NCBI GenBank assembly: GCA_034190305.1 | Contig: JAXHSV010000001.1 | Span: forward strand, 1 to 56,191 | Origin: Planctomycetota bacterium | GTDB lineage: Bacteria > Planctomycetota > Phycisphaerae > SM23-33 | DNA: 56,191 bases | Direction of reading: 5' to 3' | In this document: positions 9,247 through 45,846 of the stretch, piece after piece | How the letters are laid out: every line of letters starts with the position of its first letter | Numbering within the stretch: the first letter of the stretch is position 1 | Notes under the pieces: model-generated | What the model saw: only the letters and a program-made list of their open reading frames with translations | Database searches by the model: none | What the model was told of the DNA's origin: nothing | Translations under genes and position numbers: made by a program

Positions 9247-10498
9247 TTATAAGGGGCGTCCCGCCGACCGGCCGCAGCAATTCTTGAACTTACGTCCCGA
9301 ACCGCACGGGCAGGGTTCGTTCCTGCCGACCCTGCCGGCGGTGGTTCGTTGTCTTCCGCCCGTCTCGGGCAGGCGACCGTCTTTGACGTACGCGGCGATG
9401 CGATTCAGTTCCGGAAGCGCAGCCTTGAAAAACATCTTGTATCCTTCGCAAAAGTGATTTACCCGCTCAGGTCCGCCGCCGATTGGAACGTGGTGCTTCG
9501 GACATCCGCCCCAACAGTATCGCAGGAATTCGCAATCTTTACACGCAGCCGGTAGTTCGGTCTTCAATTCGGCGAATTTTTCCAATTTTGTGTCGAGTAA
9601 CAGTTCGGCCAGCGGGCGATCCATAATGTTTCCAATCCGCCAGTCAGCCAAGACGAAATGATCGCAAGCGTAGAGGTCGCCGTTGAATTCCAGCACGTGT
9701 GCGTTGGCGCACCGTTGCGAATTGGTGCACATCGCCGCCCGGCCGTAAATGATTGTCTGTATTACGCTGTCGATAAAGCGCTCGGAGACTTTCCCGACGT
9801 CCCTGCCGGACCACAACTCAAAGACCTCCAGATAGAACCGCCCGAACTGCTCGGCGGTGCACGAAAATTACCGCCGGTTTGCCGGTGGCGTTGCGCTCCA
9901 GAATCGGGATGAACTGAAGGTTCCGCAGGCCGCGATTGACAAAATAGCGGTAGATGTCGCCGGCGTGCGGGGCGTTGGCGCTGTTGAGCGTCGCCAGGAC
10001 GTTGAATTCCACGTTGTGCTTCCGCAGCAGTTCCAGTCCGGCCCAGGCTCGATGGAAAGTCGCCTCGCCGGCGCGGTCGCGACGGTAATGGTCGTGCCAC
10101 TGATGCGGGCCATCGATGCTGATTCCGATAAGGAACTTATTCTCGGCGAAGAACTCGCACCACGCCTCGTCCAGCAGCGTGCCGTTGGTCTGGAGTGCGT
10201 TTGTGACGGTCTGACCGGCGAGGCGATTCTCCGCCTGGAATGCTACCGCCCGGCGAAAGAAATCCATCCCCGCAAGCAAAGGCTCTCCTCCCTGCCAGTG
10301 AAATTCGCACCGCTCCGACATCGCATCCATGTATTGTTTCGTAAATGCGGCAAGGACATCGTCCGGCATTATGAAATTCTCAACCGGCGGGTAGAGTTCC
10401 TTCGGCTTGGCGGTGTAGTAGCAGTAACGGCAGGAGAGGTTACAGACGCCGCTGACCGGCTTGGCCATTATGTTGAACGGACGGATAAATTCACTCAT
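9247..10498 (-). pseudogene. Anaerobic sulfatase-maturating enzyme (radical SAM/SPASM), split by a frameshift near 9864-9870
   Basis: The N-terminal ORF (9818-10498) has CNLSCRYCYY (CX3CX2C) and GGEPLL. The C-terminal ORF (9247-9816) has SPASM-like Cys clusters (CANAHVLEFNGDLYACDH, CKDCEFLRYCWGGCPKH). The second frame resumes as FSCTAEQFGRFYLEVFELW right at an A4/T4 run. Confidence 0.8.
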
Positions 10499-10525
10499 GC
10501 GCCCTTGCCCGCACCTTTTCGACTT

Positions 10526-11177
10526 TTACGCCGGCGCGATTCGCGGCATCCTTACCGGTTCGCTCTGCAAAGTGGCCTGGAGAAACTCGTGCAGCAGTTG
10601 GGATTTCAACTCGGTGGCGGATGAGTCGTGTTTTTTCCTCATCCGGCGGCCAGGGCTCGAAATAATCGGACCAGTCGGCCAGGCCCTTCTGTTCCATCCA
10701 TATCGCGTAGTGTTGTCCGACGAGGTATTCGCTGCCGTGCATCCTTGCGGTTTCCAGGTGCTCGAAGCCGTAGAAAGGCCCGTGAAAGTTCCGCCAGAAA
10801 TCCAGGTCGCGGATGAGGGGAAGACATTCGATGGATTAGGCGCCCGGTTGCGACGCCAGAGGCTGGAAATGGGCTTTACCAATAAGCGCCGTGAAATATC
10901 CTGCCTGTTTTAACATGTCGGTGATTCTCGGAACATCCTCGAAAAGTTTCGTTCCGAGCGCCCAGGCGCCGTGCTGTGAGGGATACATTCCGGTGATTAT
11001 GCTGGCCCGCGAAGGCGTGCAGGTCGGATTGGGGCAATAGGCGCGGTCGAACCGCACGCCTTCACTGCAAAGCCGATCCAGCGCCGGTGTCTTAATCCGA
11101 TCATTTACCGACCCCAGCGTGCTGTAATGCTGCTGGTCGGAAGTAATCAGGAGTATATTGGGTCTATTCGACGGCAT
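10526..11177 (-). pseudogene. Cys-type sulfatase remnant (in-frame TAA, internal deletion, frameshift)
   Basis: The N-terminus is MPSNRPNILLITSDQQH...CTPSRASIITG (FGly motif at 11007-11021). A TAA at 10836-10838 is in frame with the continuing homology SIECLPLIRDLDFWRNFHGPFYGFEHLE. The frame changes at the T6 run (10631-10636) into a typical sulfatase C-terminus, ELKSQLLHEFLQATLQSEPVRMPRIAPA. About 217 codons remain, against 450 or more expected. Confidence 0.8.
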
Positions 11178-13260: not shown

Positions 13261-13343
13261 AGAGAATTCTCTCGCCAAAAAGTTCTATAAAAAGGACATC
13301 GTACCGAACCTTTCGGGCGAGTCAAACCCTATGTTCGAATCGG

Positions 13344-13826
13344 TTACTGTCCCGCCGCCGGCTGACCGGAGGCGAGGTCAGGATACGCCTCGGCGAATTC
13401 CTTCGAGCAGAACTTATCGGCTACGAAAAAGTACTTGAACGGCTTGCCCTGCGAGGTCTGAACGGTGGCGACAATCCCATACACAACATGGGCTAACCAA
13501 ATCAGCGAAAGAAAACAAGGGAACGTGAACGCCAGTACTCCAACCGTAATAACTGTCAGCAACAACGACAAGATTATGGCGACAATGAGCACAACCGTCG
13601 CGAAGATCCCCTGGACCATCGCTTGTTTGCCGTGGAAGGCGGCGAATTTGTCCTCATCTTTCTTCACGAGCCAAATAATCAGTGGCCCAAGCCACCACGT
13701 CAGGACCATCAGGAGGTGTGGCAGCCAGGCCATGGTCAAGTCCGGTTTGACGGGCTGTTGGACGGGTGACTGAGGCGGAGGCTGCTGGGAAGGTGGGACT
13801 TCCGGCGGTGGAGATGTGTCTGTCAT
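13344..13826 (-). CDS. DUF4870-like small membrane protein with a Pro/Gln-rich N-terminus
   Basis: LVKKDEDKFAAFHGKQAM followed by hydrophobic helices. Confidence 0.6.
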   Translation of the reverse strand: MTDTSPPPEVPPSQQPPPQSPVQQPVKPDLTMAWLPHLLMVLTWWLGPLIIWLVKKDEDKFAAFHGKQAMVQGIFATVVLIVAIILSLLLTVITVGVLAFTFPCFLSLIWLAHVVYGIVATVQTSQGKPFKYFFVADKFCSKEFAEAYPDLASGQPAAGQ

Positions 13827-13986
13827 GGCTCAATCCTTTCATGTTATAACGACACCAATCCCGAACTGAACTTGCACTGAAACTATACCGACATGCCGTA
13901 TATAAGTATCGGCTTGCCCGCCGATATATGTCAAATGCTAAATGCCAAACCGGTAATACAGGTTTGAAACATGTGTTACCGGCAAA

Positions 13987-14793
13987 TTGACAAAAACTGT
14001 TTTTGCGGGTCTATTATTGCGACGAGAAAGGAGTTTCACCATCAATCAAACAGCACCGATAGACGCTGAAAAACCGTGTCCACGATGCAAGATGTCCAAC
14101 GCTCCGGACACCGAGTTCTGCGCCCACTGCGGCCTGCGGATGGGCCGGCACAAACCGGTGGCATGGTGGCATATCCACAGGAGACTCTATGACTGGACGG
14201 TGGGTTGGACGTATCGCCCGTCGTCGTCGGTTGCGCTGTTTGCGTTGAGTTTTTCCGAGAGCATAATTTTCCCCGTCCCCCCGGACGTTCTGCTGATACC
14301 GTTAGTATTGGGCAACCGCCGCAAGTGGCTGAAATACGCCGCTCTGTGCAGCATCGCCAGCGTAGCCGGCGCAGTGGCTGCCTTTCTTATAGGCTGGCTG
14401 GCGTGGTGGGCCGTCAAGGATTTCGCCTTCGAGTATCTGGGATGGACCGGATTGGCAGAGGACAACTTCGACACCATCTCGCTGTGGTTCGAACGGTGGA
14501 ATTTCTGGATTATTTTTGCAGCCGGTTTTACACCCCTTCCCTTCAAGGTGTTCAACATCTTCGCCGGCGTATTCGGCACCGGGCCTGAGGTGTCCAGCCC
14601 GGTAATTTTCTTCGTCCTTTTCCTTACAGCCGCCACCGTCAGCCGGACCGCAAGGTTCTTTCTGGTCGCAGGCCTGATGCGGGCCTTCGGTGCGAAGATG
14701 ACGCCGTTCATCGAGAAATATTTCAACTGGCTGTCGATAGCCTTTGCAGCCCTGCTTATCGGCGGGTTTGTAGTGGCGAAATACGCCTTTTGA
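13987..14793 (+). CDS. YqaA/DedA-like (VTT/SNARE-associated domain) membrane protein with an N-terminal zinc ribbon
   Basis: CPRCKMSNAPDTEFCAHCG zinc ribbon, then FSESIIFPVPPDVLLIPL typical of YqaA-type proteins. The start codon is uncertain (TTG at 13987). Confidence 0.65.
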   Translation: MTKTVFAGLLLRRERSFTINQTAPIDAEKPCPRCKMSNAPDTEFCAHCGLRMGRHKPVAWWHIHRRLYDWTVGWTYRPSSSVALFALSFSESIIFPVPPDVLLIPLVLGNRRKWLKYAALCSIASVAGAVAAFLIGWLAWWAVKDFAFEYLGWTGLAEDNFDTISLWFERWNFWIIFAAGFTPLPFKVFNIFAGVFGTGPEVSSPVIFFVLFLTAATVSRTARFFLVAGLMRAFGAKMTPFIEKYFNWLSIAFAALLIGGFVVAKYAF

Positions 14794-14804
14794 GTAAAAT
14801 GCGG
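14771..14804 (+). repeat. Direct repeat copy 1: functional 3' end of the YqaA-like gene (VVAKYAF-stop plus 11 nt)
   Basis: TAGTGGCGAAATACGCCTTTTGAGTAAAATGCGG, repeated at 15807-15841. Confidence 0.8.
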
Positions 14805-14936
14805 ATTAGACATCGATGGCGGAGGGATTTGTTACGAAATGCCTTATGGAAAAATCTCACGGTTTGAGAGAATATTATCTTGCGTTGACGAAAAAAAGAT
14901 GTACACTAAAGATGTCCAACTTAGCGGAGGCCGGTA

Positions 14937-15173
14937 ATGAAGGCTCTTAGTGTAAAAGAAATACGAACGCGCCTGAGCAAGGTAATTCACGAGGCCGAAT
15001 GCGGCGAATCGACCACAATCACCCGCTATGGGAAACCGGTGGCTCGAATTGTCCCGGCCGATACTCATCGCCCCGCTTTTCCGGACCTGTCGGAATTCCG
15101 CGCTTCGATCAAACCTCGCGGCAAGACCCTGACCGACACGCTCCGTGAAATGCGCGAGGAGGAACGGCTTTGA
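14937..15173 (+). CDS. Phd/YefM-family antitoxin
   Basis: MKALSVKEIRTRLSKVIHEAECGESTTITRYGKPVARIVP. GGAGG RBS. 4-nt overlap with the downstream PIN gene. Confidence 0.85.
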   Translation: MKALSVKEIRTRLSKVIHEAECGESTTITRYGKPVARIVPADTHRPAFPDLSEFRASIKPRGKTLTDTLREMREEERL

Positions 15174-15589
15174 GGGCGTATGTCGACACCAGTATATTAA
15201 CCGGAGCGTACTGCGCCGAGCCGGGCAGCGCACGCTCGCAGAAAGTGTTGCAGCGTTACATGCCTGTAATCTCCCGCCTGACGTGCCTGGAGTTCAGTTC
15301 CTCGGTGGCTAGGAAACTTCGCATGAAAACCTTCTCAAAAACCGAGGCGCTCAGGGTGATTCACCAGTTTCATTCTCACCTCCAACAGGACATCTTCGAA
15401 CTCAAGCCGGTTCAGGACATGCACCTGGTATTGGCCGGCGAATGGATCGACTTGTTTGCGACCGGACTGCGCCCGTTGGATGCAATGCACCTCGCGATTG
15501 CCCATTCCAATAAACTGCTACTGGTTACAGCCGACGTATCGCTTGCCAAGTCGGCCCGGCAACTCGGCGCAGCAGTGGAACGAATCTGA
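15170..15589 (+). CDS. vapC: VapC-type PIN-domain toxin
   Basis: YVDTSIL (first acidic residue), LDAMHLAIA and LVTADVSLAKSA. TTG start overlapping the antitoxin stop. Confidence 0.8.
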   Translation: MRAYVDTSILTGAYCAEPGSARSQKVLQRYMPVISRLTCLEFSSSVARKLRMKTFSKTEALRVIHQFHSHLQQDIFELKPVQDMHLVLAGEWIDLFATGLRPLDAMHLAIAHSNKLLLVTADVSLAKSARQLGAAVERI

Positions 15590-15687
15590 TCCGTCGTAGT
15601 AAAAAAATTGAGGTCTTTCCGGTCGGTGGGTTCGTAATAGTCTGTCAATCTTAAATCTGTGAACAAAATCTTCAGACGTCGGTTTTT

Positions 15688-15769
15688 CGACACAGAGACA
15701 CAGAGGAACAGAGACATAAAAACAGATTTGTCTTTTTTCTATTCTCTGAATCTCTGCGTCTCTGTGTCG
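15688..15769. repeat. Palindromic element, CAGAGA family (copy A1)
   Basis: Arms CGACACAGAGACACAGAGGAACAGAGA and TCTCTGAATCTCTGCGTCTCTGTGTCG around an AT-rich loop. Confidence 0.85.
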
Positions 15770-15806
15770 CATAATCCTGCTGACAAATTTGAAGTTAACG
15801 GAGTAA

Positions 15807-15841
15807 TAGTAGCCAAATATGCCTTTTGAGTAAAGTGCAGG
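15807..15841 (+). repeat. Direct repeat copy 2: orphan 3' end of the YqaA-like gene (VIVAKYAF-stop)
   Basis: TAGTAGCCAAATATGCCTTTTGAGTAAAGTGCAGG. Differs from copy 1 mostly at third codon positions. Confidence 0.8.
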
Positions 15842-15867
15842 TCGAACGGCAAGCCGCTCGGTTCCGC

Positions 15868-17616
15868 TCACGACAGGCCGTTCGGCGATTTTTCTTCCTC
15901 GCCTTCGCTTTTCGGTTTTTCCTGCATGGGGTACTTCAGACGGACGTGGTACATTCCACAGAGGCTTTTGACCAGCGACGTTTCGATGGCGTGGACCTCC
16001 CGCAGCGTCAATTCGCAGTCGTCCAGTTGCCCGTCCATAAGGCGCTTGGAAATCACGAAGTGGACCTGCGTTTCGATTCGCCCGGCGGTTGGTTCCGGTG
16101 TGGCGCGGATGGATGATTCAGCCGCGTCGGCGAGCATGAGAATGGCTGCCTCTTTCATTCGCGGCTTGGGACCCGGATAGCGGAACTCGACTTCATCGGG
16201 CGCACTTTCGCCGTTATCGGCTCGCTGCTCGGCTGCGGCGTGGTAGAAATACTCCACCAGCGTCGTACCGTGGTGCGTGGCGATGAATTCCCGAAGTACC
16301 CTTGGCAGACCATACTGCCTGGCCATTTCAACGCCGTCCTTGACGTGTCCCTTGATTACCAGCAGGCTCATTGCCGGCGAAAGTTTCTCGTGGCGCGAGG
16401 CGGAACCGGCCTGGTTCTCCACGAAATAATCGGGCTTGTTGATTTTTCCGACATCGTGGTAGTAGGCGCCGACCCTCGCCAGCAGACCCCGAGCGCCAAT
16501 GGCCTCGGCGGCGGATTCGCACATCGCCCCCAGCACGAGCGAGTGATTATACGTCCCCGGCGCTTCCAGCGCCAGGCGCTTCAGCAGCGGTTTGTTGGCG
16601 TCGCACCATTCCAGCAGCGTCAGCGATGTGGCGACGGAGAATACCCGTTCAATCAGAGGCAGAATGCCCTGTGTGAGGAACCCGCCGGCGATAGCTGCCC
16701 CTGCGGCATAACAGCCGTCCACGAGAACAAATCGCCCCGGCATGCCGGCGGCGGATTCAACCAGCCAGACGGTAATGAACACCACCACCGCAACCACGCC
16801 GCCGGTCTCGATGAGTTTGCTTCGAGTCCGAACCTCGTGCAACTGGAAAACGATCGTCGCCGCGGCCGACCAGAGCACCAACAGTCCCCCCACTCCCAGA
16901 CGAACCTGCAAGGCCGTCAGGATCACCAGCGCACCGGTAACCGCGAAGGCGAAACGCTGGTCGTAGGCGATGGCGAGCATGGTGGCGGCTACGAATATCC
17001 CGAAAACCGACAGGTACGGATTCATGCTTCCTGCGCCGACGACCACCCGACTCAACAACAGCACCAGAAAGATCAGCATCACAATGGCCAGGCCCCGCCA
17101 GTGGTTCTTCACGATCCGCGGGCTGTACTTGGCGACATATAACCCCAGCATGGCAACGACGCCGGCGATAATTCCCGCCCTGCCAAGGAATATCCAGAAC
17201 CGCCTTAGGGGCGAATCGGCGTTTCGCTGTTGCAGGAATGCCACGTGTTCAGCAGACAGGATTGCCACCTGTGCCTCTTTCAGTCCACCGTCGGCGGTCC
17301 CGGTTACAAGGAGTCTTCCTTTAGGGATGCTCTGTCCGACCGGCTGGGTCGCAGGAATTGTGGTCGGTCTTTCAGCATCGGCAAAGTGGAATTCAACACG
17401 GGCGTATGCGTCACGGGGAAGGTATCCGCCGAGGCGGTAGGGCGCAGGCTCCAGCGGGCAGGCGTCCATTATCAGCGCCGCGACAAACAGACCCGTCGCC
17501 AATAAGACCGACCCGACACCGCCGGCGTCGCGGAACCGCTGCCATCGGCCGGGTCCGGCCGGGGCGATCTTGCGAATCTCCCGCCGCTGACGATTTTTCT
17601 TCTTAAAAGGCCACAT
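15868..17616 (-). CDS. pgpH: 7TM-HD membrane phosphohydrolase (PgpH/YqfF family, c-di-AMP phosphodiesterase-like)
   Basis: Multi-TM central region, then an HD domain (GAYYHDVGK, ATHHGTTL). Lies downstream of phoH, as in many bacteria. Confidence 0.8.
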   Translation of the reverse strand: MWPFKKKNRQRREIRKIAPAGPGRWQRFRDAGGVGSVLLATGLFVAALIMDACPLEPAPYRLGGYLPRDAYARVEFHFADAERPTTIPATQPVGQSIPKGRLLVTGTADGGLKEAQVAILSAEHVAFLQQRNADSPLRRFWIFLGRAGIIAGVVAMLGLYVAKYSPRIVKNHWRGLAIVMLIFLVLLLSRVVVGAGSMNPYLSVFGIFVAATMLAIAYDQRFAFAVTGALVILTALQVRLGVGGLLVLWSAAATIVFQLHEVRTRSKLIETGGVVAVVVFITVWLVESAAGMPGRFVLVDGCYAAGAAIAGGFLTQGILPLIERVFSVATSLTLLEWCDANKPLLKRLALEAPGTYNHSLVLGAMCESAAEAIGARGLLARVGAYYHDVGKINKPDYFVENQAGSASRHEKLSPAMSLLVIKGHVKDGVEMARQYGLPRVLREFIATHHGTTLVEYFYHAAAEQRADNGESAPDEVEFRYPGPKPRMKEAAILMLADAAESSIRATPEPTAGRIETQVHFVISKRLMDGQLDDCELTLREVHAIETSLVKSLCGMYHVRLKYPMQEKPKSEGEEEKSPNGLS

Positions 17617-18650: not shown

Positions 18651-18816
18651 GAGATTCAAAATCCGAAATACGAAGCACGAAGGCCGAAACAATATCGAAT
18701 GACCAAAATCCGAATGTTCAAAACCCTTTCTCGGCAGGTCTTGATGAAACTTTTTTGAACATTTGAATTTCGTATTTCGAATTTGTTTCGAGTTTCGGAT
18801 TTCGATATTCGGATTT
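18651..18816. repeat. Palindromic element, AATCCGAAA heptad family (copy B1)
   Basis: The left arm contains AAATCCGAAATACGAAG...CCGAAACAATATCGAA...CCGAATGTTCAAAA. The right arm is TTTTTTGAACATTTGAATTTCGTATTTCGAATTTGTTTCGAGTTTCGGATTTCGATATTCGGATTT. Confidence 0.85.
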
Positions 18817-22609: not shown

Positions 22610-24304
22610 ATGCCCATTCGCGGACTAGGCTTCCTGAGCCGGCAATATCGCCACATCAACCGATACCGTCAGATCGTATCTGTCCTGCTGAAGCACGGAT
22701 TCGGGGACCTGATGGGGACTCTGGGTCTGCATCGGCGCCTCGGCATGGACAAGCGCCGCGCAGACCGGCCCGAAGCGATTGTCACACAGACACTGACGCG
22801 GTGGCAGCGCGTGCGAATGGCAATGGAGGAACTCGGCCCGTCCTTCGTCAAGTTGGGGCAGATCGCTGCAACCCGTCCTGACATGATCCCGCAGGAACTG
22901 TGCAGCGAACTGGAAAAACTTCAGGATACGGTTCCACCCTTCGGCTTCAGCCAGGTCGGACAAACAGTAAAGGCCGAACTCGGCGATTCGCTCGAAGCGC
23001 TGTTCGAGCGGTTCGATCAAAAGCCCGTAGCGTCCGCATCCATCGCCCAGGTTCACCGCGCTGTCCTTCCCGGCGGCGAAGTGGTGGCTGTTAAAGTCCA
23101 GCGTCCCGAAATAGACCGGACAATTGCGGTTGACCTGGAGATTATGCTCGATCTGGCCGCTCTTATGGAAAAGCACATTCACGGACTCGATGCGGTAAAT
23201 CCGGTCGGGATAGTTCAGGAATTCGCTCGCACGATTCGCAAGGAACTGGACTTTACAATCGAGGCCGATCATATCGAGCGTTTCGCCCGGAATTTTAAAT
23301 CGAACGATAACGTGCACGTCCCGCGGGTCTTCCGTCGTTACTCGACCAGAAAAGTCCTGACGATGGAGTTTGTCGAGGGGGTTAAGGTTTCGGACCTTCC
23401 GGCTTTGCGCGAGGGCGGTTTTGACCTGGAGTTAATCGCCGGCAGAGGCGCCGATCTCGTCCTCGAACAGATATTCGTGCACGGGTTCTTTCACGCTGAT
23501 CCGCATCCGGGCAACATCCTCATCCTGCCCGACAACGTTATCTGCTTCCTCGATTACGGCATGATGGGGACCGTGAAGCCTCGCTACCGCCAAAGCCTCG
23601 CCGATCTGGTTGTAGGAATCGTCCGCCGCGACGAGAGCCAAATAACAAAGGCGGTTCTGAGTCTTTCGGAGAACGACAATCCCGAGACATACGAGAGGCT
23701 CGAAGCGGACGTGGACGATTTCATCGAGCAGCACTTTTATCGTCCGCTAAAGGACATCCACATGGGAAGCCTCATATCGCAGCTGGTTCAAATTCTGGTG
23801 CGCCACCGGTTAAGGATTATCCCGGATTTCTACCTTCTCACCAAGGCGTTGGCTATCGCCGAGGGAAACGGGCGCAAACTCTGGCCTGATTTCGATATGA
23901 TCAAAAATACCGAGCCGTTCGCCAGGAAAATCATGACTGAACGCCTCAGCCCCCGAACACTTGCGAAAGACCTTTATCGCTCCGGTATCGATATGGGAAA
24001 CCTTATGCGGGACCTGCCCGGCGACGTGAAGGAAATACTCGCCCAGATAAAGCGGGGGCGAATTCACGTCGAGTTCGAACACAGGGGTTTGGAACCGATG
24101 CTCAAGACGCACGACCAGATAAGCAACCGCATAGTATTCGCCATCGTCCTGGCGGCCATTGTTATCGCCTCGTCGGTTATTGTTCTTTCGGGTATTCCGC
24201 CGAAATGGTACGGCATTCCGGTCCTTGGAATTGTCGGATACCTCGCTGCCGGTGCGATGGGCTTCTGGCTGCTGATTTCAATCATCAGGCACGGGAAGAT
24301 GTGA
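22610..24304 (+). CDS. ABC1/UbiB-family atypical kinase
   Basis: LGPSFVKLGQIAATRPDMIP, ASIAQVHRA, VAVKVQRP, FFHADPHPGNI, and two C-terminal TM helices. Confidence 0.85.
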   Translation: MPIRGLGFLSRQYRHINRYRQIVSVLLKHGFGDLMGTLGLHRRLGMDKRRADRPEAIVTQTLTRWQRVRMAMEELGPSFVKLGQIAATRPDMIPQELCSELEKLQDTVPPFGFSQVGQTVKAELGDSLEALFERFDQKPVASASIAQVHRAVLPGGEVVAVKVQRPEIDRTIAVDLEIMLDLAALMEKHIHGLDAVNPVGIVQEFARTIRKELDFTIEADHIERFARNFKSNDNVHVPRVFRRYSTRKVLTMEFVEGVKVSDLPALREGGFDLELIAGRGADLVLEQIFVHGFFHADPHPGNILILPDNVICFLDYGMMGTVKPRYRQSLADLVVGIVRRDESQITKAVLSLSENDNPETYERLEADVDDFIEQHFYRPLKDIHMGSLISQLVQILVRHRLRIIPDFYLLTKALAIAEGNGRKLWPDFDMIKNTEPFARKIMTERLSPRTLAKDLYRSGIDMGNLMRDLPGDVKEILAQIKRGRIHVEFEHRGLEPMLKTHDQISNRIVFAIVLAAIVIASSVIVLSGIPPKWYGIPVLGIVGYLAAGAMGFWLLISIIRHGKM

Positions 24305-24307
24305 GCG
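24272..24307 (+). repeat. Direct repeat copy 1: functional 3' end of the ABC1-kinase gene (LISIIRHGKM-stop)
   Basis: CTGATTTCAATCATCAGGCACGGGAAGATGTGAGCG, repeated at 24876-24911 with one mismatch. Confidence 0.9.
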
Positions 24308-24429
24308 GGCCGACACCGGGCGCACTAGCCCTGCACAGGTCTTGTTTTACCCAATCGGTCGGTTTATCATAATAAAGAACAGTCGGTTAGCAGGGAAGCA
24401 ACAGTGGCTGTGGGGCAAGGAGTTTGGTG

Positions 24430-24642
24430 ATGGGATATCATATACCTGTATTGATTGAGCAGGATGAAGACGACGTTTTTATCGTTTCGGCGCCGACGCT
24501 TCGCGGCTGCCACAGTTACGGAGATACACTTGAAGAGGCCATGAAAAACATCGCTGAAGCGGTGATGCTTTGCCTGCAGGATGAAGTCCCTGATCAAAAC
24601 CGGCGGTTTGTCGGCGTGCGCGACCTGGAGGTAACGGTGTGA
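24430..24642 (+). CDS. hicB: HicB-family antitoxin
   Basis: YHIPVLIEQDEDDVFIVSAPTLRGCHSYGDTLEEAMKNIAEAV (UPF0150/HicB N-domain). AAGGAG RBS. Confidence 0.8.
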   Translation: MGYHIPVLIEQDEDDVFIVSAPTLRGCHSYGDTLEEAMKNIAEAVMLCLQDEVPDQNRRFVGVRDLEVTV

Positions 24643-24866
24643 CGACCGTGCCGGTCATCCCAGCACGCAGGCTTATCCGGGTCTTGGCCAAGTTGGGCTT
24701 CGAGGAAATTCGCTGTCGCGGCTCTCATCATCGGTTTGCTCATCCGGATGGTCGAAAAACTACTGTGCCGGTTCATCAGGGGCGGGAAATTCCCCGCGGG
24801 CTGCTGCGAAAAATTGTTACTGTCGATCTGGGCATGGATATGAAAGAATTTGTTTCGATGCTGTAG
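24639..24866 (+). CDS. hicA: HicA-family mRNA interferase toxin
   Basis: ARRLIRVLAKLGFEEIRCRGSHHRFAHPDGRKTTVPVHQGREIPRGLLRKI. GTGA start/stop overlap with hicB. Confidence 0.85.
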   Translation: MTTVPVIPARRLIRVLAKLGFEEIRCRGSHHRFAHPDGRKTTVPVHQGREIPRGLLRKIVTVDLGMDMKEFVSML

Positions 24867-24875
24867 GTGTTTCTT

Positions 24876-24911
24876 CTGATTTCAATTATCAGGCACGGGA
24901 AGATGTGAGCG
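24876..24911 (+). repeat. Direct repeat copy 2: orphan 3' end of the ABC1-kinase gene
   Basis: CTGATTTCAATTATCAGGCACGGGAAGATGTGAGCG. Begins 10 nt after the hicA stop and still reads LISIIRHGKM-stop. Confidence 0.9.
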
Positions 24912-24929: not shown

Positions 24930-25649
24930 TTACATCATCGCTACGACGACATTGTAGCAGGCATGAGCGCCGACGGCGACACCGAAGCCGCGACCGATAT
25001 AGACTATCGCCAGGTAGGCCCCGGCAATTCCGCGAAACACAAACAGGCGCCAGTCGAAATCGGCTGGGCCTATGAAATGATATAAACTGAACAGCACCGA
25101 AGCGGAAACGACGGCCACCACTGCGGTGGGCTTCCTGGCTGCCTTCAGCAGGTCCACAAAAAGCAGCATAATCAGGCCGATAGCCGCCAGGCGGAAGATG
25201 AACTCCTCGTATATTCCCGCCCCTATTCCCGTGAGTATTTCAGCGGCCAGTGCCTGGTCCCCCGCCCCGGCTGCCAGAGCCTCAGGAGCAATCAGCCTGT
25301 CGGTCAGAAACGCCAGGGCGACCAGCGGCGCCATCCCGACGACGCTTTCGGCAAACATTCCCGCTACGGCGTCGGCATCGACGTGCCGCTTTTCCCGGCT
25401 GGCGATGTGCCATGCCAGAAGGACGACGACAATCAACGCCGCCGGAAGAAACCTCGCCGCGGCCCCGAGACTATTGAGCACAACAGCAAGATGCCGAGGA
25501 GCCAGCAGGCAATCGCTGTAAAAAATGGACCCGACCTCATAGGCCACAAGGAGAGGAAGAATGAACATCAGGCAGTTGAGCGGGCGATGGGTCCGCCTCA
25601 GGTATTCCGACGCGGCTTTACTGAATCGGCTTTTTTTCTTCGAAGCCAT
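24930..25649 (-). CDS. CPBP-family intramembrane metalloprotease (CAAX protease-like)
   Basis: EEFIFRLAAIG, SVLFSLYHF and HACYNVVV motifs. Start taken at MASKKK, because the longer N-terminus runs into a repeat element. Confidence 0.75.
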   Translation of the reverse strand: MASKKKSRFSKAASEYLRRTHRPLNCLMFILPLLVAYEVGSIFYSDCLLAPRHLAVVLNSLGAAARFLPAALIVVVLLAWHIASREKRHVDADAVAGMFAESVVGMAPLVALAFLTDRLIAPEALAAGAGDQALAAEILTGIGAGIYEEFIFRLAAIGLIMLLFVDLLKAARKPTAVVAVVSASVLFSLYHFIGPADFDWRLFVFRGIAGAYLAIVYIGRGFGVAVGAHACYNVVVAMM

Positions 25650-25671
25650 ACCGGCAAACTGACATACAAGA

Positions 25672-25787
25672 GGCCACAGAGACGCAGAGAGCGCAGAGAT
25701 TAACAAGACAAAAGAAACAAAATAACGCAGGGATTTTTGATTCTATCTAACTTATTTGTTCTCTGCGCTCTCTGTGCCTCTGCGGCC
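25672..25787. repeat. Palindromic element, CAGAGA family (copy A2)
   Basis: Arms GGCCACAGAGACGCAGAGAGCGCAGAGA and TCTCTGCGCTCTCTGTGCCTCTGCGGCC. Confidence 0.85.
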
Positions 25788-25800
25788 TATTTTCCCAAAC

Positions 25801-25875: not shown

Positions 25876-25917
25876 GTGTACTAGCATTCAGCAATCAGCG
25901 GTCAGCAATCAAACTGC

Positions 25918-26085
25918 AAAATCCGAAATCCGAATTTCGAAATCCGAAACAATATCGAAACTCAAATGACTAAAAAATCCAAAACATAAACAAGCATAAA
26001 TACTTGCGATGTTCGATGTTTGGAACATTAGAAAATTCGAACTTCGAATTTGTTTCGTATTTCGTATTTCGATATTCGGATTTTT
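25918..26085. repeat. Palindromic element, AATCCGAAA heptad family (copy B2), between the two tRNA genes
   Basis: The left arm is AAAATCCGAAATCCGAATTTCGAAATCCGAAACAATATCGAAAC... The right arm is ...CGAATTTGTTTCGTATTTCGTATTTCGATATTCGGATTTTT. Shares CCGAAACAATATCGAA and TTCGATATTCGGATTT with B1. Confidence 0.85.
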
Positions 26086-27740: not shown

Positions 27741-27850
27741 GCCGCAGAGGCACAGAGAGCGCAGAGATGTAAAAAATTAGAGAAAAAATAAGAAACGAAA
27801 GTCTTTTTTTGATTCTATTTATTCTCTGCGTCCTCTGCGTCTCTGCGGCC
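27741..27850. repeat. Palindromic element, CAGAGA family (copy A3), in the tsf-pyrH spacer
   Basis: Arms GCCGCAGAGGCACAGAGAGCGCAGAGA and TCTCTGCGTCCTCTGCGTCTCTGCGGC. Confidence 0.85.
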
Positions 27851-30677: not shown

Positions 30678-31004
30678 ATGGCCAAGGCCAAGAGCAGCAG
30701 GAAAAAAGCAGCAAAGACAAAGATTCGCCCGCTGGGCGAGAAGGTTCTCATCAAGCGTCTGGAAGCGGAAACCAAGACCAGCGGAGGCATCGTACTTCCT
30801 GACACAGCCAAGGAAAAACCCCAGAAGGGCAAGGTTCTCGCACTGGGAGACGGTAAACTGCTCGACGACGGCAGCCGGGCGGATTTCCAGGTAAAGGTCG
30901 GACAGACCGTACTGTTCACTTCCTACGCCGGGACCGAAATAAAGGTCGATGGCGAAGAGGTGATGCTTATGGACGAAAGCGACATACTCGCAATTTTGGA
31001 TTAA
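30678..31004 (+). CDS. groES: Co-chaperonin GroES with a Lys-rich N-terminal extension
   Basis: IRPLGEKVLIKRLEAETKTSGGIVLPDTAKEKPQKGKVLALG, preceded by MAKAKSSRKKAAKTK. Strong AAAGGAG RBS before the ATG. Confidence 0.9.
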   Translation: MAKAKSSRKKAAKTKIRPLGEKVLIKRLEAETKTSGGIVLPDTAKEKPQKGKVLALGDGKLLDDGSRADFQVKVGQTVLFTSYAGTEIKVDGEEVMLMDESDILAILD

Positions 31005-31039
31005 TATTTTGTCAACATTGAATTCGTGAGTAAAGGATT

Positions 31040-31110
31040 GCGACACAGAAACGCAGAGGGACAAAGATAAAAAGAAATAAATCTTTTCTTTTCTCTGCGT
31101 CTCTGTGTCG
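31040..31110. repeat. Palindromic element, CAGAGA family (copy A4), inside the groES-groEL spacer
   Basis: Arms GCGACACAGAAACGCAGAGGGACAAAGA and TCTCTGCGTCTCTGTGTCG. Confidence 0.8.
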
Positions 31111-31167: not shown

Positions 31168-32799
31168 ATGGCGAAGAAAAAAATCACGTTTGACATTGAG
31201 GCCCGCGAGGCCATCCGTCAGGGCGTAAGAAAACTCGCCCAGGCGGTTAAAGTTACACTCGGACCGACGGGGCGCGTCGTGGTGCTGGAAAAATCCTTCG
31301 GCAGCCCGACCGTTACAAAGGATGGAGTTACGGTAGCCAAGGAAATCGAACTGGAAAACCCGGAAGAGAACATGGGCGCGCAAATGGTGCGCGAGGTCGC
31401 CTCCAAGACATCCAACGTCGCCGGCGACGGTACGACGACTGCGACAATCTACGCCGAAGCAATCTTCGAGGAAGGGCTCAAAAACGTAACAGCCGGCGCA
31501 AAAGCGATGCAGTTGAAACGAGGCATCGAAAAGGCGACAGACGCAATCGTGGCTGAACTTCAGCGGATGAGCAAACCGGTGAAGCGGTCCGAGGAGATTG
31601 CGCAAGTCGGAACCTGCGCAGCCAACCAGGACGCGGAAATCGGCAGGATGATAGCCGAGGCGATGGATAAGGTCGGCAAAGACGGCGTTATAACAGTCGA
31701 AGAAGGCAAAGGCCTGGAGACCAGCGTCGAACTGGTCGAGGGTATGCAGTTCGACAAGGGCTACATCTCACCGCACTTCGTTAACAAAATGGAGACGATG
31801 GAATGCGACCTGGAGAACCCGTTCATCCTGATTAACGAGAAGAAGATTTCAAACATTAAGGACCTGGTTCCGCTTCTGGAGAAGATTGCCCAGGCCGGCA
31901 GACCGCTTCTGATAGTGGCTGAAGACGTCGAGGGCGAGGCCCTGGCGACTCTGGTGGTCAACAAACTCCGAGGCACGCTCCAGTGCTGCACGGTCAAGGC
32001 CCCCGGATTCGGCGACCGCCGAAAGGAAATGCTCCGCGACATTGCCATTTTGACCGGCGGAAACGCCGTCATGGAAGACATGGGCGTGTCGCTGGAAAGC
32101 ATCCAGATGACCGATCTCGGCTCGGCCAAGCGGGTTCGAATCGACAAGGACAACACCACAATTATCGAAGGCGGCGGAAAGACCGCCGACATAAAGGGTC
32201 GAATCGAGCAGATTAGAAACGAAATCGAAGCCACAACCTCCGACTACGACCGTGAGAAACTCGAAGAGCGCCTGGCCAAACTGGCCGGCGGGGTCGCGCA
32301 GATTAACGTCGGAGCCGCCACCGAAGTGGAGATGAAAGAGAAGAAGGCCCGCGTCGAGGACGCCCTTCACGCCTGCCGAGCGGCTGTCGAAGAAGGTATC
32401 CTGCCCGGCGGCGGCGTAGCAGTGCTGCGGGCGAGAAAGACCCTTGATAAAGTCAAATGCAGCAGCGACGACGAAGCCACCGGCGTCGATATCGTCCGCC
32501 GGTCGCTGGTGATGCCGATTAAGCAGATCGCTATCAACTCAGGGCTCGATGGTTCCATCGTTGCAGCCAAGGTCGATGAATCCGACAAGGAAAACTTCGG
32601 ATACGACGCACTGGTCGGTAAATACTGTGACCTGGTCAAGGCCGGAGTCATCGTCCCGACCAAGGTCGAGCGAACCGCGCTTCAGAACGCAGCCTCGGTT
32701 GCCGGTCTGCTTCTGACGACCGACGCGATGGTCAGTGAAATCCCGGAAAAGAAGCCGCCTATGCCCCCGGGCGGCGGCGGAATGGAAGGGATGTATTAA
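31168..32799 (+). CDS. groEL: Chaperonin GroEL
   Basis: [44 protein letters not shown], and the C-terminal [11 protein letters not shown]. Confidence 0.95.
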
Positions 32800-40668: not shown

Positions 40669-40756
40669 TTACTCTTCCTGAATATGTTTTCACGACATAA
40701 GGAATGTGATATTCCAGAGGATATCGGCTGGGGGGGGGCTTTTTGATGTTATTTGC
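40669..40756 (-). repeat. Orphan, decayed copy of the 3' end of the MBL/RNase Z-like gene (direct repeat of 44983-45066)
   Basis: Reads PADILWNITFLMS-stop-KHIQEE-stop, against PADIRQRVTFLMSWKHIQDE-stop in the intact gene. Contains a G9 run at 40730-40738. Confidence 0.8.
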
Positions 40757-40861
40757 TTGCCGCAAACTGATCGCCGAACAGGATCGCCCTTGACCTCCGA
40801 TTGATAAACCCATAGCGTTAATGTGCCGTATCCTTGTAACGTTTGTGCGAAAGAACGGACT

Positions 40862-42118
40862 ATGACTCCAAACCAGTCCATGTTGTGGACCGACCGGCTG
40901 CGGAACATAATGCCATGGGGGTCCAGCACGATTTCAAAGGCTCCGAAATTTGCGCCCGACGAGCCGGGCGCAATCGTTCGCGGTAAGGGTTGTCGGGTCT
41001 GGGACGCCGACGGGCGGGAGTACATCGATTTCCGCAACGCCCTGGGTCCTGTAACATTGGGATATTGCTTCGACGCCGTTAACGAAGCGATCCGTGAGCA
41101 GATGGTCAACGGGATTGTCTTCGGCCAGCCGCACCCCATCGAGTGCCTGGTGGCGGAGATGCTGTGTGAGGTGATTCCGTGCGCGGAGCAGGCAAGATTC
41201 CTCAAGACCGGCGGCGAGGCGCTCGCCGCTTGCATCCGCCTGGCGCGACACCACACGGGACGCGAGCATGTGATACAGATCGGATACAACGGCTGGCTGA
41301 ACAGCCTGTCCGCTGCAGGGGCGGTGCTCCCCGGCCGCATTGGGCCAGCAGCGCCGGCAGGTGTGCCCGAATCGCTCTGTATGCTTCACCATGCCTGCCG
41401 GTGGAACGACCTCTCGCAGATGCAGGCGATTTTCGACAGGTACGACGACCAGATCGCCGCCGTGGTCATTGCGGCGGACTACTCCAAAATGGAAGATGGG
41501 CGGACGTTCTATCCGGCTGTGCGCGAGTTAACGCGGCGGAACGGAACCGTGTTGATCTTCGACGAGATCGTAACGGGATTTCGGATCGCCATTGGGGGAG
41601 TTCAGGAGTACTTCGGCGTCAGCCCGGACATGGCGGTCTTTGCCAAGGGCATGGCCAACGGAATGCCGATATCTGTCTATGTCGGCAGGCGGGAATTAAT
41701 GCAGGATTTCGGAGATGTAATAGTATCTTCGACGTATGGTGGCGAAACGTTGTCGCTAGCCGCCGCCGAGGCTGCAATCCGGACTTATAGAGATCAGGAT
41801 GTGGTGGGACACCTTTGGCGGCAGGGCAGAAGGCTGGTTACAGAGGCGAACAGCCTGTTTGAACAATATGCCTTGGGCATCCGCCTGGAAGGCATGGCCC
41901 CTTGCCCGATTTTCGTCTTTGAAGCAGAAACCGGCAAAACTGATACCGACCGGCTGCAAGATGTTTTCTTTCGCGCCTCGTATCGGCACGGCCTGAGTTT
42001 CTACAACGTCTCCTATGTTAACTTCAGCCACCGTGATGAGGACATCACAGAGGCGATGGATCGGCTTGACGCCGCCTGTGGAGAAATTGCTTCGGAGGGG
42101 GCCGACGGATGCGGGTGA
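40862..42118 (+). CDS. Class-III (GSA-aminomutase-like) PLP aminotransferase
   Basis: GKGCRVWDADGREYIDF, LIFDEIVTGFR, FAKGMANG (PLP-Lys). Start at MTPNQ. Confidence 0.8.
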   Translation: MTPNQSMLWTDRLRNIMPWGSSTISKAPKFAPDEPGAIVRGKGCRVWDADGREYIDFRNALGPVTLGYCFDAVNEAIREQMVNGIVFGQPHPIECLVAEMLCEVIPCAEQARFLKTGGEALAACIRLARHHTGREHVIQIGYNGWLNSLSAAGAVLPGRIGPAAPAGVPESLCMLHHACRWNDLSQMQAIFDRYDDQIAAVVIAADYSKMEDGRTFYPAVRELTRRNGTVLIFDEIVTGFRIAIGGVQEYFGVSPDMAVFAKGMANGMPISVYVGRRELMQDFGDVIVSSTYGGETLSLAAAEAAIRTYRDQDVVGHLWRQGRRLVTEANSLFEQYALGIRLEGMAPCPIFVFEAETGKTDTDRLQDVFFRASYRHGLSFYNVSYVNFSHRDEDITEAMDRLDAACGEIASEGADGCG

Positions 42119-44982: not shown

Positions 44983-45846
44983 TCACTCATCCTGAATATG
45001 TTTCCACGACATGAGGAATGTAACTCTCTGGCGGATGTCGGCTGGCAGTGTCTTTTTGAGGATTTTTCGGGCCTCGGCCAGGTTTGTCCGGCGGGTTACG
45101 TGGGTCAGGACGATCCGCTCGTTATTCATCCCTTCGAGGACTTCTGCCAGGTCGTTTATGTGCAGGTGTCTGCCCGCGCGAGCCCGGCTGATGTGGTCGT
45201 CGTCAAAGAAGGTGCACTCAATAAGCAGCACCCTTGCGTCGCGGACGTGTGGGATGGCGGAGTAATTGGCCCTGGCTGTATCGCCCAGATAAGTTACCAG
45301 CGGAATCTCGACGCTGCGGGTGATCTCGACGCCTTTTTTCTTCAGTTCCACCAGTTCAGGCCCGTCCAGGCCGATGAATTCATCCTTGAGTTTATGGCGG
45401 ACGTCGATAAGCGCAAAACCAAGCGAGTTTCCGATATGCCGCGTTGCGAAGGCCCGCGCGATCAGGCCGCGACGGATTTCATAATCGTCGCCGTCCCCCA
45501 TTCCTACGAACTTGTGCGGCGAGGGATGTCCTTCGACCCGCGCGACCGCGTCCATCAGGTTCTCCAGCGGTCCGACGATGGAATGGGCTACAAGCGCGAC
45601 CCCGCCGGTGATGCCCTGAAAATCCCGCTGGCTGAAGTAATAAGCGATACCGGCTGCATGGTCCATGTGCCCGTGGCTAAGCAGGACGTGGTTGACTCGC
45701 AGCGCCTCGCGCGGGCATCGGCCGATGTCGAAAACCACGTCCAGTTCGGGAACCACGATGACTGACTCCTCCCCGGCGACGCTGTAACCGGCAAGAGTGA
45801 AGTCGTCGAATTCCATGCAACTGAGTTTGAATGCTTGCCTTTTCAT
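44983..45846 (-). CDS. MBL-fold metallo-hydrolase, RNase Z/BN-like
   Basis: VLLSHGHMDHAAG (HxHxDH), THVTRR C-terminal motif. Confidence 0.75.
   Translation of the reverse strand: MKRQAFKLSCMEFDDFTLAGYSVAGEESVIVVPELDVVFDIGRCPREALRVNHVLLSHGHMDHAAGIAYYFSQRDFQGITGGVALVAHSIVGPLENLMDAVARVEGHPSPHKFVGMGDGDDYEIRRGLIARAFATRHIGNSLGFALIDVRHKLKDEFIGLDGPELVELKKKGVEITRSVEIPLVTYLGDTARANYSAIPHVRDARVLLIECTFFDDDHISRARAGRHLHINDLAEVLEGMNNERIVLTHVTRRTNLAEARKILKKTLPADIRQRVTFLMSWKHIQDE

Follow-up and report, generated by a model that had tools for sequence, protein, structure and literature searches.

In the window analysed here, a 56,191-bp metagenome-assembled genome (MAG) contig from Planctomycetota (NCBI), a small cassette encoding a predicted Phd/VapC toxin-antitoxin (TA) pair lies between two copies of the 3' end of a YqaA/DedA-type membrane-protein gene (hereafter YqaA), the functional end standing on its left and a displaced, orphan end on its right. 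The best explanation of these copies is that they are the 3' ends of two alleles of one gene and not the products of an in-place duplication, and we assign a probability of roughly 0.6 to the reading in which the resident gene end was displaced when ~1.5 kb were imported in a single event of homology-facilitated illegitimate recombination (HFIR). The locus is an ordinary, unusually well-documented footprint of gene import by recombination and not a new kind of mobile element. It joins known kinds, namely the HFIR product, the insertion with long duplication and the 3'-end displacement, in a record that is unusually complete for an uncultured lineage, and it provides a natural case in which the empty site, the donor-type allele and the recombinant are all visible. 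The relatives compared are all metagenome assemblies, like the window, and are cited by locus number (L001 and so on) where they have to be told apart; the closest of them, judged by its flanking genes, is L092 (GCA_021106805.1).

The two gene ends and the empty site

The features concerned are listed below in the coordinates of the window.

13987-14793, plus strand: YqaA/DedA-type (VTT-domain) membrane-protein gene with an N-terminal zinc ribbon; resident-type to ~14133, foreign allele from 14134 to 14793
14758-14812, plus strand: left copy, comprising the functional gene end IGGFVVAKYAF-stop and ~19 nt of spacer past the stop
14813-15614, plus strand: mobile phd-vapC cassette, comprising an upstream region, phd, vapC and a 25-nt tail ending ...TTGAGG
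14937-15173, plus strand: phd (PF02604, E 7e-9, 35.8 bits, cut-off 29.8; TIGR01552)
15170-15589, plus strand: vapC (PF01850, PIN domain, E 5e-12, 47 bits, cut-off 23.6)
15615-15641, plus strand: left part of the orphan, TCTTTCCGGTCGGTGGGTTCGTAATAGT, codons -15 to -8 of a displaced resident-type YqaA; aligns to the L091 gene end GTCCTTCTGGTCGGCGGGTTTG...
15642-15802, no strand: 161-nt insertion in the orphan, a 'CAGAGA' palindrome resembling repetitive extragenic palindromes (REP) or miniature inverted-repeat transposable elements (MITE), core 15683-15778, flanked by GTAATAGT
15811-15867, plus strand: right part of the orphan, AGCC AAA TAT GCC TTT TGA GTAAAGTGCAGG to 15841, and native YqaA-PgpH spacer, 15842-15867
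15868-17616, minus strand: PgpH-like 7TM-HD gene (PF07698, PF01966), convergent with YqaA; conserved right-hand neighbour

The repeat search recovers a direct repeat between 14771-14802 and 15807-15838, in which 28 of 32 nt are identical (88%) at a distance of 1036 nt, and a 27-nt pattern with up to three mismatches has only two sites in the 56 kb (0 expected, 100 shuffles), so that the duplicated block to which a preliminary description of this stretch had drawn attention is real and is the sole such pair in the window. The YqaA gene ends ...GTA GTG GCG AAA TAC GCC TTT TGA, with its stop codon at 14791-14793, and is followed by GTAAAATGCGG; the orphan (15803-15841) reads GTA ATA GTA GCC AAA TAT GCC TTT TGA GTAAAGTGCAGG, with its stop at 15827-15829. 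The starts first given for the two blocks are off by 1 nt for the gene copy (GTA is at 14770) and by 4 nt for the orphan (GTAATAGTA is at 15803). Within the last six codons the copies do differ only at third positions (GTG/GTA, GCG/GCC, TAC/TAT), and between them there are indeed phd, vapC and a CAGAGA-type palindrome without a recombinase, as judged from open reading frames (ORFs), Pfam and the repeat search.

The orphan is longer than first noted, amounting to ~58 nt in two parts (15615-15641 and 15811-15841). When 15642-15810, which comprises the 161-nt insert and one copy of an 8-nt repeat, is excised, 15615-15641 is fused to 15811-15841, so that ...TCGGTGGGTTCGTAATAGT is joined to AGCCAAATATGCC..., and the product translates as (V)FPVGGFVIVAKYAF-stop, followed by GTAAAGTGCAGG, in colinearity with the gene end; as VGGFVIVAKYAF-stop it is colinear with IGGFVVAKYAF-stop of the YqaA gene. 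Local alignment of the fused orphan with the gene end gives scores of 49-58, against a mean of 14.6 and a maximum of 27 among shuffles. The repeat spans 47-58 nt, its copies are 85-88% identical with a longest identical run of 14 nt, and the coding differences between them are mostly synonymous. On the left, the gene copy remains homologous to the orphan, as well as to the spacers of L092 and L091, as far as ~14812, and on the right the orphan begins directly after the last shared bases of the cassette (...TTGAGG).

A cassette-free allele exists in relatives, most closely in L092, where YqaA is directly followed by PgpH with a single gene end and no cassette, and more distantly in L014 and L015, where YqaA is likewise directly followed by PgpH. 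The L092 gene ends ...GGFVVFKYVL-stop and continues with AAATGCAAATCGAACGGCA...TGCCGTTCGA... to the PgpH stop TCACGACAGGCCGTTCGG; in the window the orphan is followed by TCGAACGGCA..., and the PgpH tail is identical to that of L092. Both copies in the window align to the single L092 gene end. Since the spacer and PgpH tail of L092 are homologous to the sequence to the right of the orphan, it is the orphan that occupies the gene-end position of the empty site. The position of the cassette after YqaA and the empty site of L092 together support the earlier proposal of an insertion at a gene's 3' end. The flanks are well conserved: against L092, PgpH is 91% identical at the amino acid level and 87.7% at the nucleotide level, PhoH is 89.5% identical in nucleotides, and a DUF4870 neighbour is shared, while against L091 PgpH is 88% identical in amino acids and the nucleotide identities are 80% for PheT and 84% for PgpH and PhoH. 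Distant relatives (59-69% amino acid identity) have mnmA divergent from YqaA and the PgpH-PhoH pair convergent with it, with no TA genes and, in L014, a spacer of ~40 nt; the order YqaA-PgpH-PhoH is also found in L006, L014 and L015.

A chimeric gene, a mobile cassette and a later insertion

The YqaA gene of the window is chimeric, being foreign from ~14134 onward. Its longest ORF starts with TTG at 13987, and the NCBI annotation starts with ATG at 14093 (P0001, 233 aa, 100% identical); the longer form is favoured because of a zinc-ribbon Pfam hit at residues 28-52. Compared with L092, identity is 90-98% from 13800 to ~14120, that is, over the promoter region, the 5' untranslated region and the zinc-ribbon codons, and then ~65% through the stop codon; taken as two blocks, it is 90.4% (13800-14133) and 66.6% (14134-14793). 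The maximum chi-square method places the breakpoint at 14134, with an observed value that none of 500 permutations reaches. Compared with L001, which carries what we call the type D allele, identity is uniform at 81-85%. L091 and L092 share a different gene body, type R, with 80-98% mutual identity in its 3' two-thirds. The window's YqaA is only 64% identical in amino acids to that of L091 (P0119), with the flanking genes more similar, and in distant relatives YqaA (62-69%) and PgpH (59-69%) diverge at a similar pace; given this equal pace, the gap between 64% for YqaA and 88% for PgpH marks the 3' part of the window's YqaA as foreign.

The orphan, in turn, most resembles the end of the resident-type (type R) allele. 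It matches the L091 gene end at 51 of 62 positions over a longer span, compared with 38 of 44 for the window's own gene end, and its leftmost ~12 nt agree with the resident-type allele at 10 of 12 positions and with the adjacent gene at 6 of 12. Colinearity with the L091 allele reaches left to 15613-15615 (GTC TTT CCG GTC in the orphan, GTC CTT CTG GTC in L091) and also continues right into the spacer.

The inserted genes constitute, on the sequence, a Phd/YefM-VapC type II TA module, in which an antitoxin-domain gene overlaps a downstream PIN toxin gene by 4 nt (15170-15173), and a conserved region upstream of phd (~14870-14936) is probably its promoter/operator. Cassettes with 83-93% nucleotide identity to that of the window are present in L087, L088, L089, L090 and L091. 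Their ends are nested and ragged, the left ones lying at ~14800-14806 (L089), 14826 (L090), 14869 (L087) and 14875 (L091) and the right ones at 15596 (L087), 15601 (L089) and 15614 (L088, L001, L091). At least five contexts can be distinguished, including the position after YqaA, an unrelated membrane-protein gene, a different repeat, a phage tail module and decayed forms. In L001 the cassette follows YqaA with the same junction as in the window; there, at 1560-1815, phd is a pseudogene (start codon lost, stop gained) and vapC is deleted between TGAGG and CGAGG repeats. In L091 it separates YqaA from PgpH, together with 640 nt of extra cargo, and at 9790-10290 vapC has an internal deletion of ~230 nt, phd being intact. 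This cargo (10290-10930, minus strand), situated between YqaA and phd in place of window 14813-14874, contains two small uncalled ORFs of ~80 and 110 aa. In L088 the cassette adjoins PgpH without an orphan and without a palindrome, in L090 it follows an unrelated Sm_multidrug_ex gene, and in L089 it stands beside another CAGAGA-type repeat. In L087 (1-5848; Joint Genome Institute contig 3300033153), the cassette separates the major tail protein gene from the next gene of a structural module that resembles those of siphoviruses, a moron-like position that suggests phage carriage of the cassette; direct repeats flanking it there amount to chance-level matches only, none of them at the junctions, and a VapC scan of viral contigs found no relative. 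A scan of metagenome contigs with AAATAYGCCTTTTGAN{1,2}AAARTGC returned seven matches, all unrelated AT-rich contigs.

The cassette is mobile without a recombinase. Within 14794-15867 the ORF list and Pfam give no recombinase-like ORF, the family matches being phd and vapC only, and no recombinase was seen beside the cassette in L001 or L087-L091. The duplicated block is absent around the cassette in L087, where both flanks are readable, and on the left of it in L089 and L090, the right sides of which are short or unreadable; the second copy is absent from the cassette-bearing loci L088 and L091. The left-block junction is common to the window and L001, the cargo after the block differs in L091, and L091 has a type R gene body, yet its last ~47 nt are identical to the left block of the window but for one indel, a distribution that points to the left copy travelling with the cassette. 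On the other side, the window, L088, L001 and L091 diverge right after the (G/A)AGG that ends the cassette, and a comparison of window 15615-15876 with the 54-nt segment downstream of the cassette in L088 and L001 detects no homology, the score being within the shuffle range.

The orphan itself has been interrupted. An 8-nt direct repeat, GTAATAGT, at 15634-15641 and 15803-15810 brackets the 161-nt insert, which has palindrome arms of 44 nt (15683-15726 and 15731-15774) and is predicted to fold as a long hairpin (z = -3.0). Further copies of the CAGAGA palindrome lie at 25673-25790, 27743-27847 and 31038-31110, making four in 56 kb, all intergenic, and the arm motif occurs 10 times in the window where 1.2 are expected. 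The insert is REP/MITE-like in having dispersed intergenic copies, a palindrome and an 8-nt target duplication, its outer terminal inverted repeats being weak only (score 12). The palindromic element entered the dead relic after the orphan had formed. An interpretation of the palindrome as an integron attC, or cassette end, was rejected, because further members of the family lie in the groES-groEL interval and in two other intergenic positions, and because here it interrupts the orphan as a later insertion. The palindromes are built of CACAGAG and GCAGAGA heptamer repeats; the copy at 31038-31110 lies between a GroES-like ORF (30678-31004) and a GroEL-like ORF (31168-32799), names read from the sequence and not from a family search, and a related arm also occurs at the start of contig L089. 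A 56-aa ORF (15659-15829) without a family match crosses the palindrome and ends in the orphan (...VIVAKYAF-stop); it is an artefact created by the relic and does not merit annotation as a gene, and the same applies to ORFs over other such relics.

A single import weighed against its alternatives

The proposed course of events begins with a recipient in which a DUF4870 gene was divergent from YqaA and PgpH convergent with it across a short spacer, as is still the case in L092. The donor would have been a related Phycisphaerae lineage with a type D YqaA allele, as in L001, and with the promoter-phd-vapC cassette already placed ~20 nt after the YqaA stop. The left end of a donor fragment of ~1.5 kb (~14134-15614) would have recombined homologously in the 5' part of YqaA, and its right end, past vapC, would have been joined illegitimately to the resident YqaA ~15 codons before the stop, at a microhomology of 3-4 nt (G[A/T]GG). 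In this manner ~600 nt of the resident gene would have been replaced by the foreign allele, with the last ~58 nt of the resident gene, the spacer and PgpH left in place as the orphan and its surroundings. The relic may be so short because a junction further downstream would damage the tightly convergent PgpH gene. The palindromic repeat came later, and the TA module was probably retained, since addiction modules resist loss. The mostly synonymous differences between the copies would follow from two alleles that each evolved under selection. For these differences the preliminary description had offered either a diverged allele brought in with the cassette or long persistence with selection acting on one copy; the foreign gene from ~14134 and the resident-like orphan favour the former, and the latter is less favoured.

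HFIR has been described in work by de Vries & Wackernagel 2002, Prudhomme et al. 2002 and Meier & Wackernagel 2003, summarised in PMC3240628, as the gain of ~1 kb coupled to the loss of ~1 kb, with 3-10 bp of microhomology at the junction (PMC3240628). The locus resembles these products in that one end is joined by homology (inside YqaA), in that a ~1-kb insertion is coupled to a loss of similar length, and in that no mobile-element genes are needed; the other end would, as in them, have been joined at short microhomology. Replacement by homology on one side is seen in the drop of identity at 14134 against L092, with L001 at 81-85% throughout, and the coupling of insertion to deletion in ~1.48 kb gained (14134-15614) and ~600 nt of resident YqaA lost relative to L092. 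At the illegitimate junction, 15614/15615, the window has GAGG-TCTTTCC and resident alleles have G(T/A)(G/A)G-TCC at the matching position (the hyphen marks the junction), which suggests a putative microhomology of 3-4 nt. Unlike the published cases, which are known from laboratory transformation and conjugation, the present one is reconstructed from natural genomes of uncultured Phycisphaerae; the anchor continues here as a homeologous allele (~66%), giving an allele replacement with a displaced gene end and not a simple indel, and the 3-4 nt of microhomology are at the low end of the published range.

Several points weigh against this import. A donor genome with the exact imported segment was not found among the relatives, the nearest type D gene, that of L001, being only 81% identical, and for this reason the donor structure and the junction microhomology can only be inferred. 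If HFIR was responsible, the donor should show the gene end, the cassette and a GGATGCAAACG... segment, without a second gene end. At 3-4 nt, the junction microhomology is short. The change from type R body to cassette-linked end in L091 occurs no more than ~14 nt from the left edge of the repeat, and this could hint at a preferred site; it can also be explained by, and we attribute it to, GGTCGGCGG (LxGGF codons), which is the longest run of conservation close to the gene end and the nearest usable homology. The left breakpoint (14134) is in a conserved stretch and may in principle be an assembly switch between co-occurring strains, an explanation that does not extend to the right junction. 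The event may also have occurred in another genome, its product then arriving by ordinary homologous recombination.

Displacement of a 3' end is familiar from other systems. Jackson and co-workers reportedly described C-terminal displacement in Rhs and contact-dependent growth inhibition (CDI) loci in 2009. An HFIR-like process has also been proposed for the displacement of type VI secretion system (T6SS) effector-immunity modules in Vibrio cholerae (Kirchberger et al. 2017) and for Rhs tips (PMC5361080). As in those systems, a module with a conserved 5' anchor replaces the 3' part of a gene, and the old 3' end is displaced downstream as an orphan. Their orphans, however, are toxin tips or immunity genes that have selective value and occur in arrays, whereas here a housekeeping membrane-protein gene has left a non-functional orphan of 58 nt, with a TA cassette as the cargo. 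The import as proposed would mean that a TA cassette can spread by hitch-hiking on the gene next to it, anchored by homology at one end and joined illegitimately at the other. In uncultured lineages such as the Phycisphaerae, past gene imports could then be recognised by short orphan gene ends.

The same layout recurs elsewhere in the window. A hicB-like gene (24424-24642, PF15919) and a hicA-like gene (24639-24866, PF07927) are flanked on one side by the end of an ABC1/UbiB-like gene and on the other by an orphan copy of it: the UbiB-like gene (22610-24304) ends ...LLISIIRHGKM-stop at 24269-24307, and the 39-nt orphan at 24873-24911, 95% identical, reads VFLLISIIRHGKM-stop and is separated by 16 nt from the stop of a convergent CPBP/Rce1-like gene (24930-25706). 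In their coding part these copies differ synonymously, no recombinase is present, and the fetched loci included no useful relative of this locus. In addition, the last ~84 nt, stop included, of an MBL-fold gene (44983-45846, minus strand), at 44985-45067, recur at 40671-40754; the two copies, 4.3 kb apart and 77% identical (~90% in the last 45 nt), bracket a 4.2-kb operon of four plus-strand genes, namely an aminotransferase III gene, two Amidohydro_2 genes and an MR_MLE-type enolase gene, and this pair is possibly a third gene-end duplication. An ORF at 40690-41340 that holds the second MBL-fold copy is probably spurious, as it has no Pfam hit and overlaps the aminotransferase gene. Each of the two recognisable TA cassettes in the window, like one operon, is enclosed by a duplicated end of the upstream gene, and a Pfam scan of ten other small ORFs of the window gave no further TA pair. 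As the three duplicated sequences are unrelated, a general recombination route is favoured over one site-specific system.

Site-specific integration is an unlikely source of the two copies. It would require an attP similar to the final ~15 codons of YqaA, the functional end being attL and the orphan attR, and a carrier in the form of a prophage, an island or an integrase-less cassette mobilised in trans, in the manner of cis-mobilisable elements (CIMEs), the rest of which, integrase included, was later deleted, the TA module surviving because it is addictive. Integration into the 3' ends of protein genes with supply of a replacement end is well known, for instance from e14 and phage 21 in icd of E. 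coli and from streptococcal integrative and conjugative elements and CIMEs, and in such cases, as here, the functional end is next to the insert, the orphan is at the far side and the differences are largely synonymous. The left block accompanies the cassette in the window, L001 and L091, and in the last of these the gene body in front of it is a different one, the switch being near the left edge of the repeat; the occurrence of the same TA cassette in the phage-like contig L087 also speaks for this route. Such elements, however, encode a recombinase or derive from carriers of one and always use the same att. No recombinase was detected at the locus or beside any copy of the cassette, and the repeat does not accompany the cassette everywhere: the block is missing in the other contexts (L087, L089 and L090, on their readable sides), and L088 and L091 have no attR. 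Integration would not make the gene body foreign from 14134, that is, replace it too, and the copies share no identical run of more than 14 nt. In the hicBA and operon cases the duplicated sequences are unrelated, so that each would need its own recombinase, and the VapC scan of viral contigs was empty. The earlier description of the block as an att-type or target-duplication footprint is not supported on several counts, namely the missing recombinase, the missing inverted ends, the absence of the block around the cassette elsewhere and the cassettes without an orphan in L088 and L091, and it is weakened further by the unrelated sequences of the two other gene-end duplications.

An in-place insertion, in which the cassette alone entered past the YqaA stop with duplication of ~50-60 nt of target, for example by staggered breaks and fill-in, and in which the copies then diverged and the YqaA mosaic arose by separate recombination, is likewise improbable. 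Insertion with long target duplication is known for restriction-modification (RM) units (Nobusato et al. 2000; Furuta et al. 2010, PMC2853133), which are inserts of <20 kb without mobile genes, flanked by repeats of >30 bp that are present as a single copy in the empty genome (PMC2853133); some of the repeats overlap the 3' end of a flanking gene, as do 46-bp repeats in H. influenzae (PMC2853133). The locus conforms to this pattern, with a small addiction-type unit of ~0.8 kb, no transposase or integrase and a repeat of at least 47 nt, although RM genes were required in the original definition and the cargo here is a type II TA module (elsewhere in the window hicBA and a metabolic operon). The empty site of L092 aligns with both copies, and the orphan agrees with the L001 gene end against the window's own at four sites, which is compatible with an older shared sequence. 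The RM-unit repeats, however, are nearly identical, compared with 85-88% identity between the present copies. Over its leftmost ~12 nt the orphan is resident-like (10/12 against 6/12), and as a whole it is closer to the L091 end; the allele is foreign from 14134 to the stop, so that a single import explains both facts with fewer events. Moreover, the cassette-bearing loci L088 and L091 lack a second copy, and the differences in the last six codons are all synonymous, unlike neutral decay in one copy. Because the left copy is of foreign allelic origin, the import by HFIR would explain in concrete terms, at least for the window, how the 'insertion with long target duplication' of addiction modules arises, a pattern long noted but left unexplained.

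It is unlikely that the recurrent layout reflects a dedicated route instead of selection acting on random HFIR events. In one version, small addiction cassettes with a substitute 3' gene end might be inserted by a host or phage recombinase acting in trans; in another, the post-segregational killing exerted by TA modules might enforce 'insertion with long target duplication'. If such a route exists, gene-end mimicry would be a general strategy of integrase-less cassettes in Planctomycetota.

An assembly artefact, in which the contig is a chimera of co-occurring cassette-bearing and cassette-free strains and the orphan is not real, is very unlikely. The window is a MAG contig, and its left breakpoint does lie in a stretch conserved between the alleles, but the partners at the right junction have only 3-4 nt in common, much less than the k-mer of any assembler, the orphan bears its own insertion with an 8-nt duplication, the same contig holds two further gene-end duplications, and independent assemblies repeat the left junction (L001, L091), the adjacency of cassette and PgpH (L088, L091) and the native spacer (L092). 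A transposon or insertion sequence with target-site duplication was rejected, as there is no transposase, there are no inverted ends, the cassette ends are ragged, and a repeat of 47-58 nt with 85-88% identity is too long and too diverged compared with a fixed duplication of 2-14 bp.

Neighbouring genes and other repeats

Upstream of YqaA, a DUF4870/MamF_MmsF-type gene is located at 13279-13986 in the window and at 3229-3872 in L092; in most relatives, including L001 and L091, mnmA takes this position, and it has been lost or moved from the locus in the lineage of the window and L092. A palindrome with 16-nt arms (13950-13982) lies just upstream of the YqaA promoter region. The homology between the window and L001 stops at 13983, from which a mobile unit consisting of YqaA plus the cassette might be supposed; this was rejected, and the break is attributed to an upstream rearrangement, since divergent mnmA and YqaA are a widespread ancestral arrangement (L001-L005, L007, L009, L012-L015) and the window and L092 carry DUF4870.

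On the other side, the C-terminal tails of PgpH are of two kinds, ...PNGLS-stop in the window (15868-15885) and L092 versus ...PNGAKPKKE-stop or ...PNGSKHQKE-stop in L088 (703-730) and L091 (9779-9750), and the homology between the window and L088 breaks inside this tail, at 15876/15877. A second, unrelated repeat family of ~165 nt is represented at 18657-18816 and 25917-26083, the two copies being ~70% identical and matching in both orientations, and L091 likewise contains a match to the copy at 18659-18816, close to its PhoH gene.

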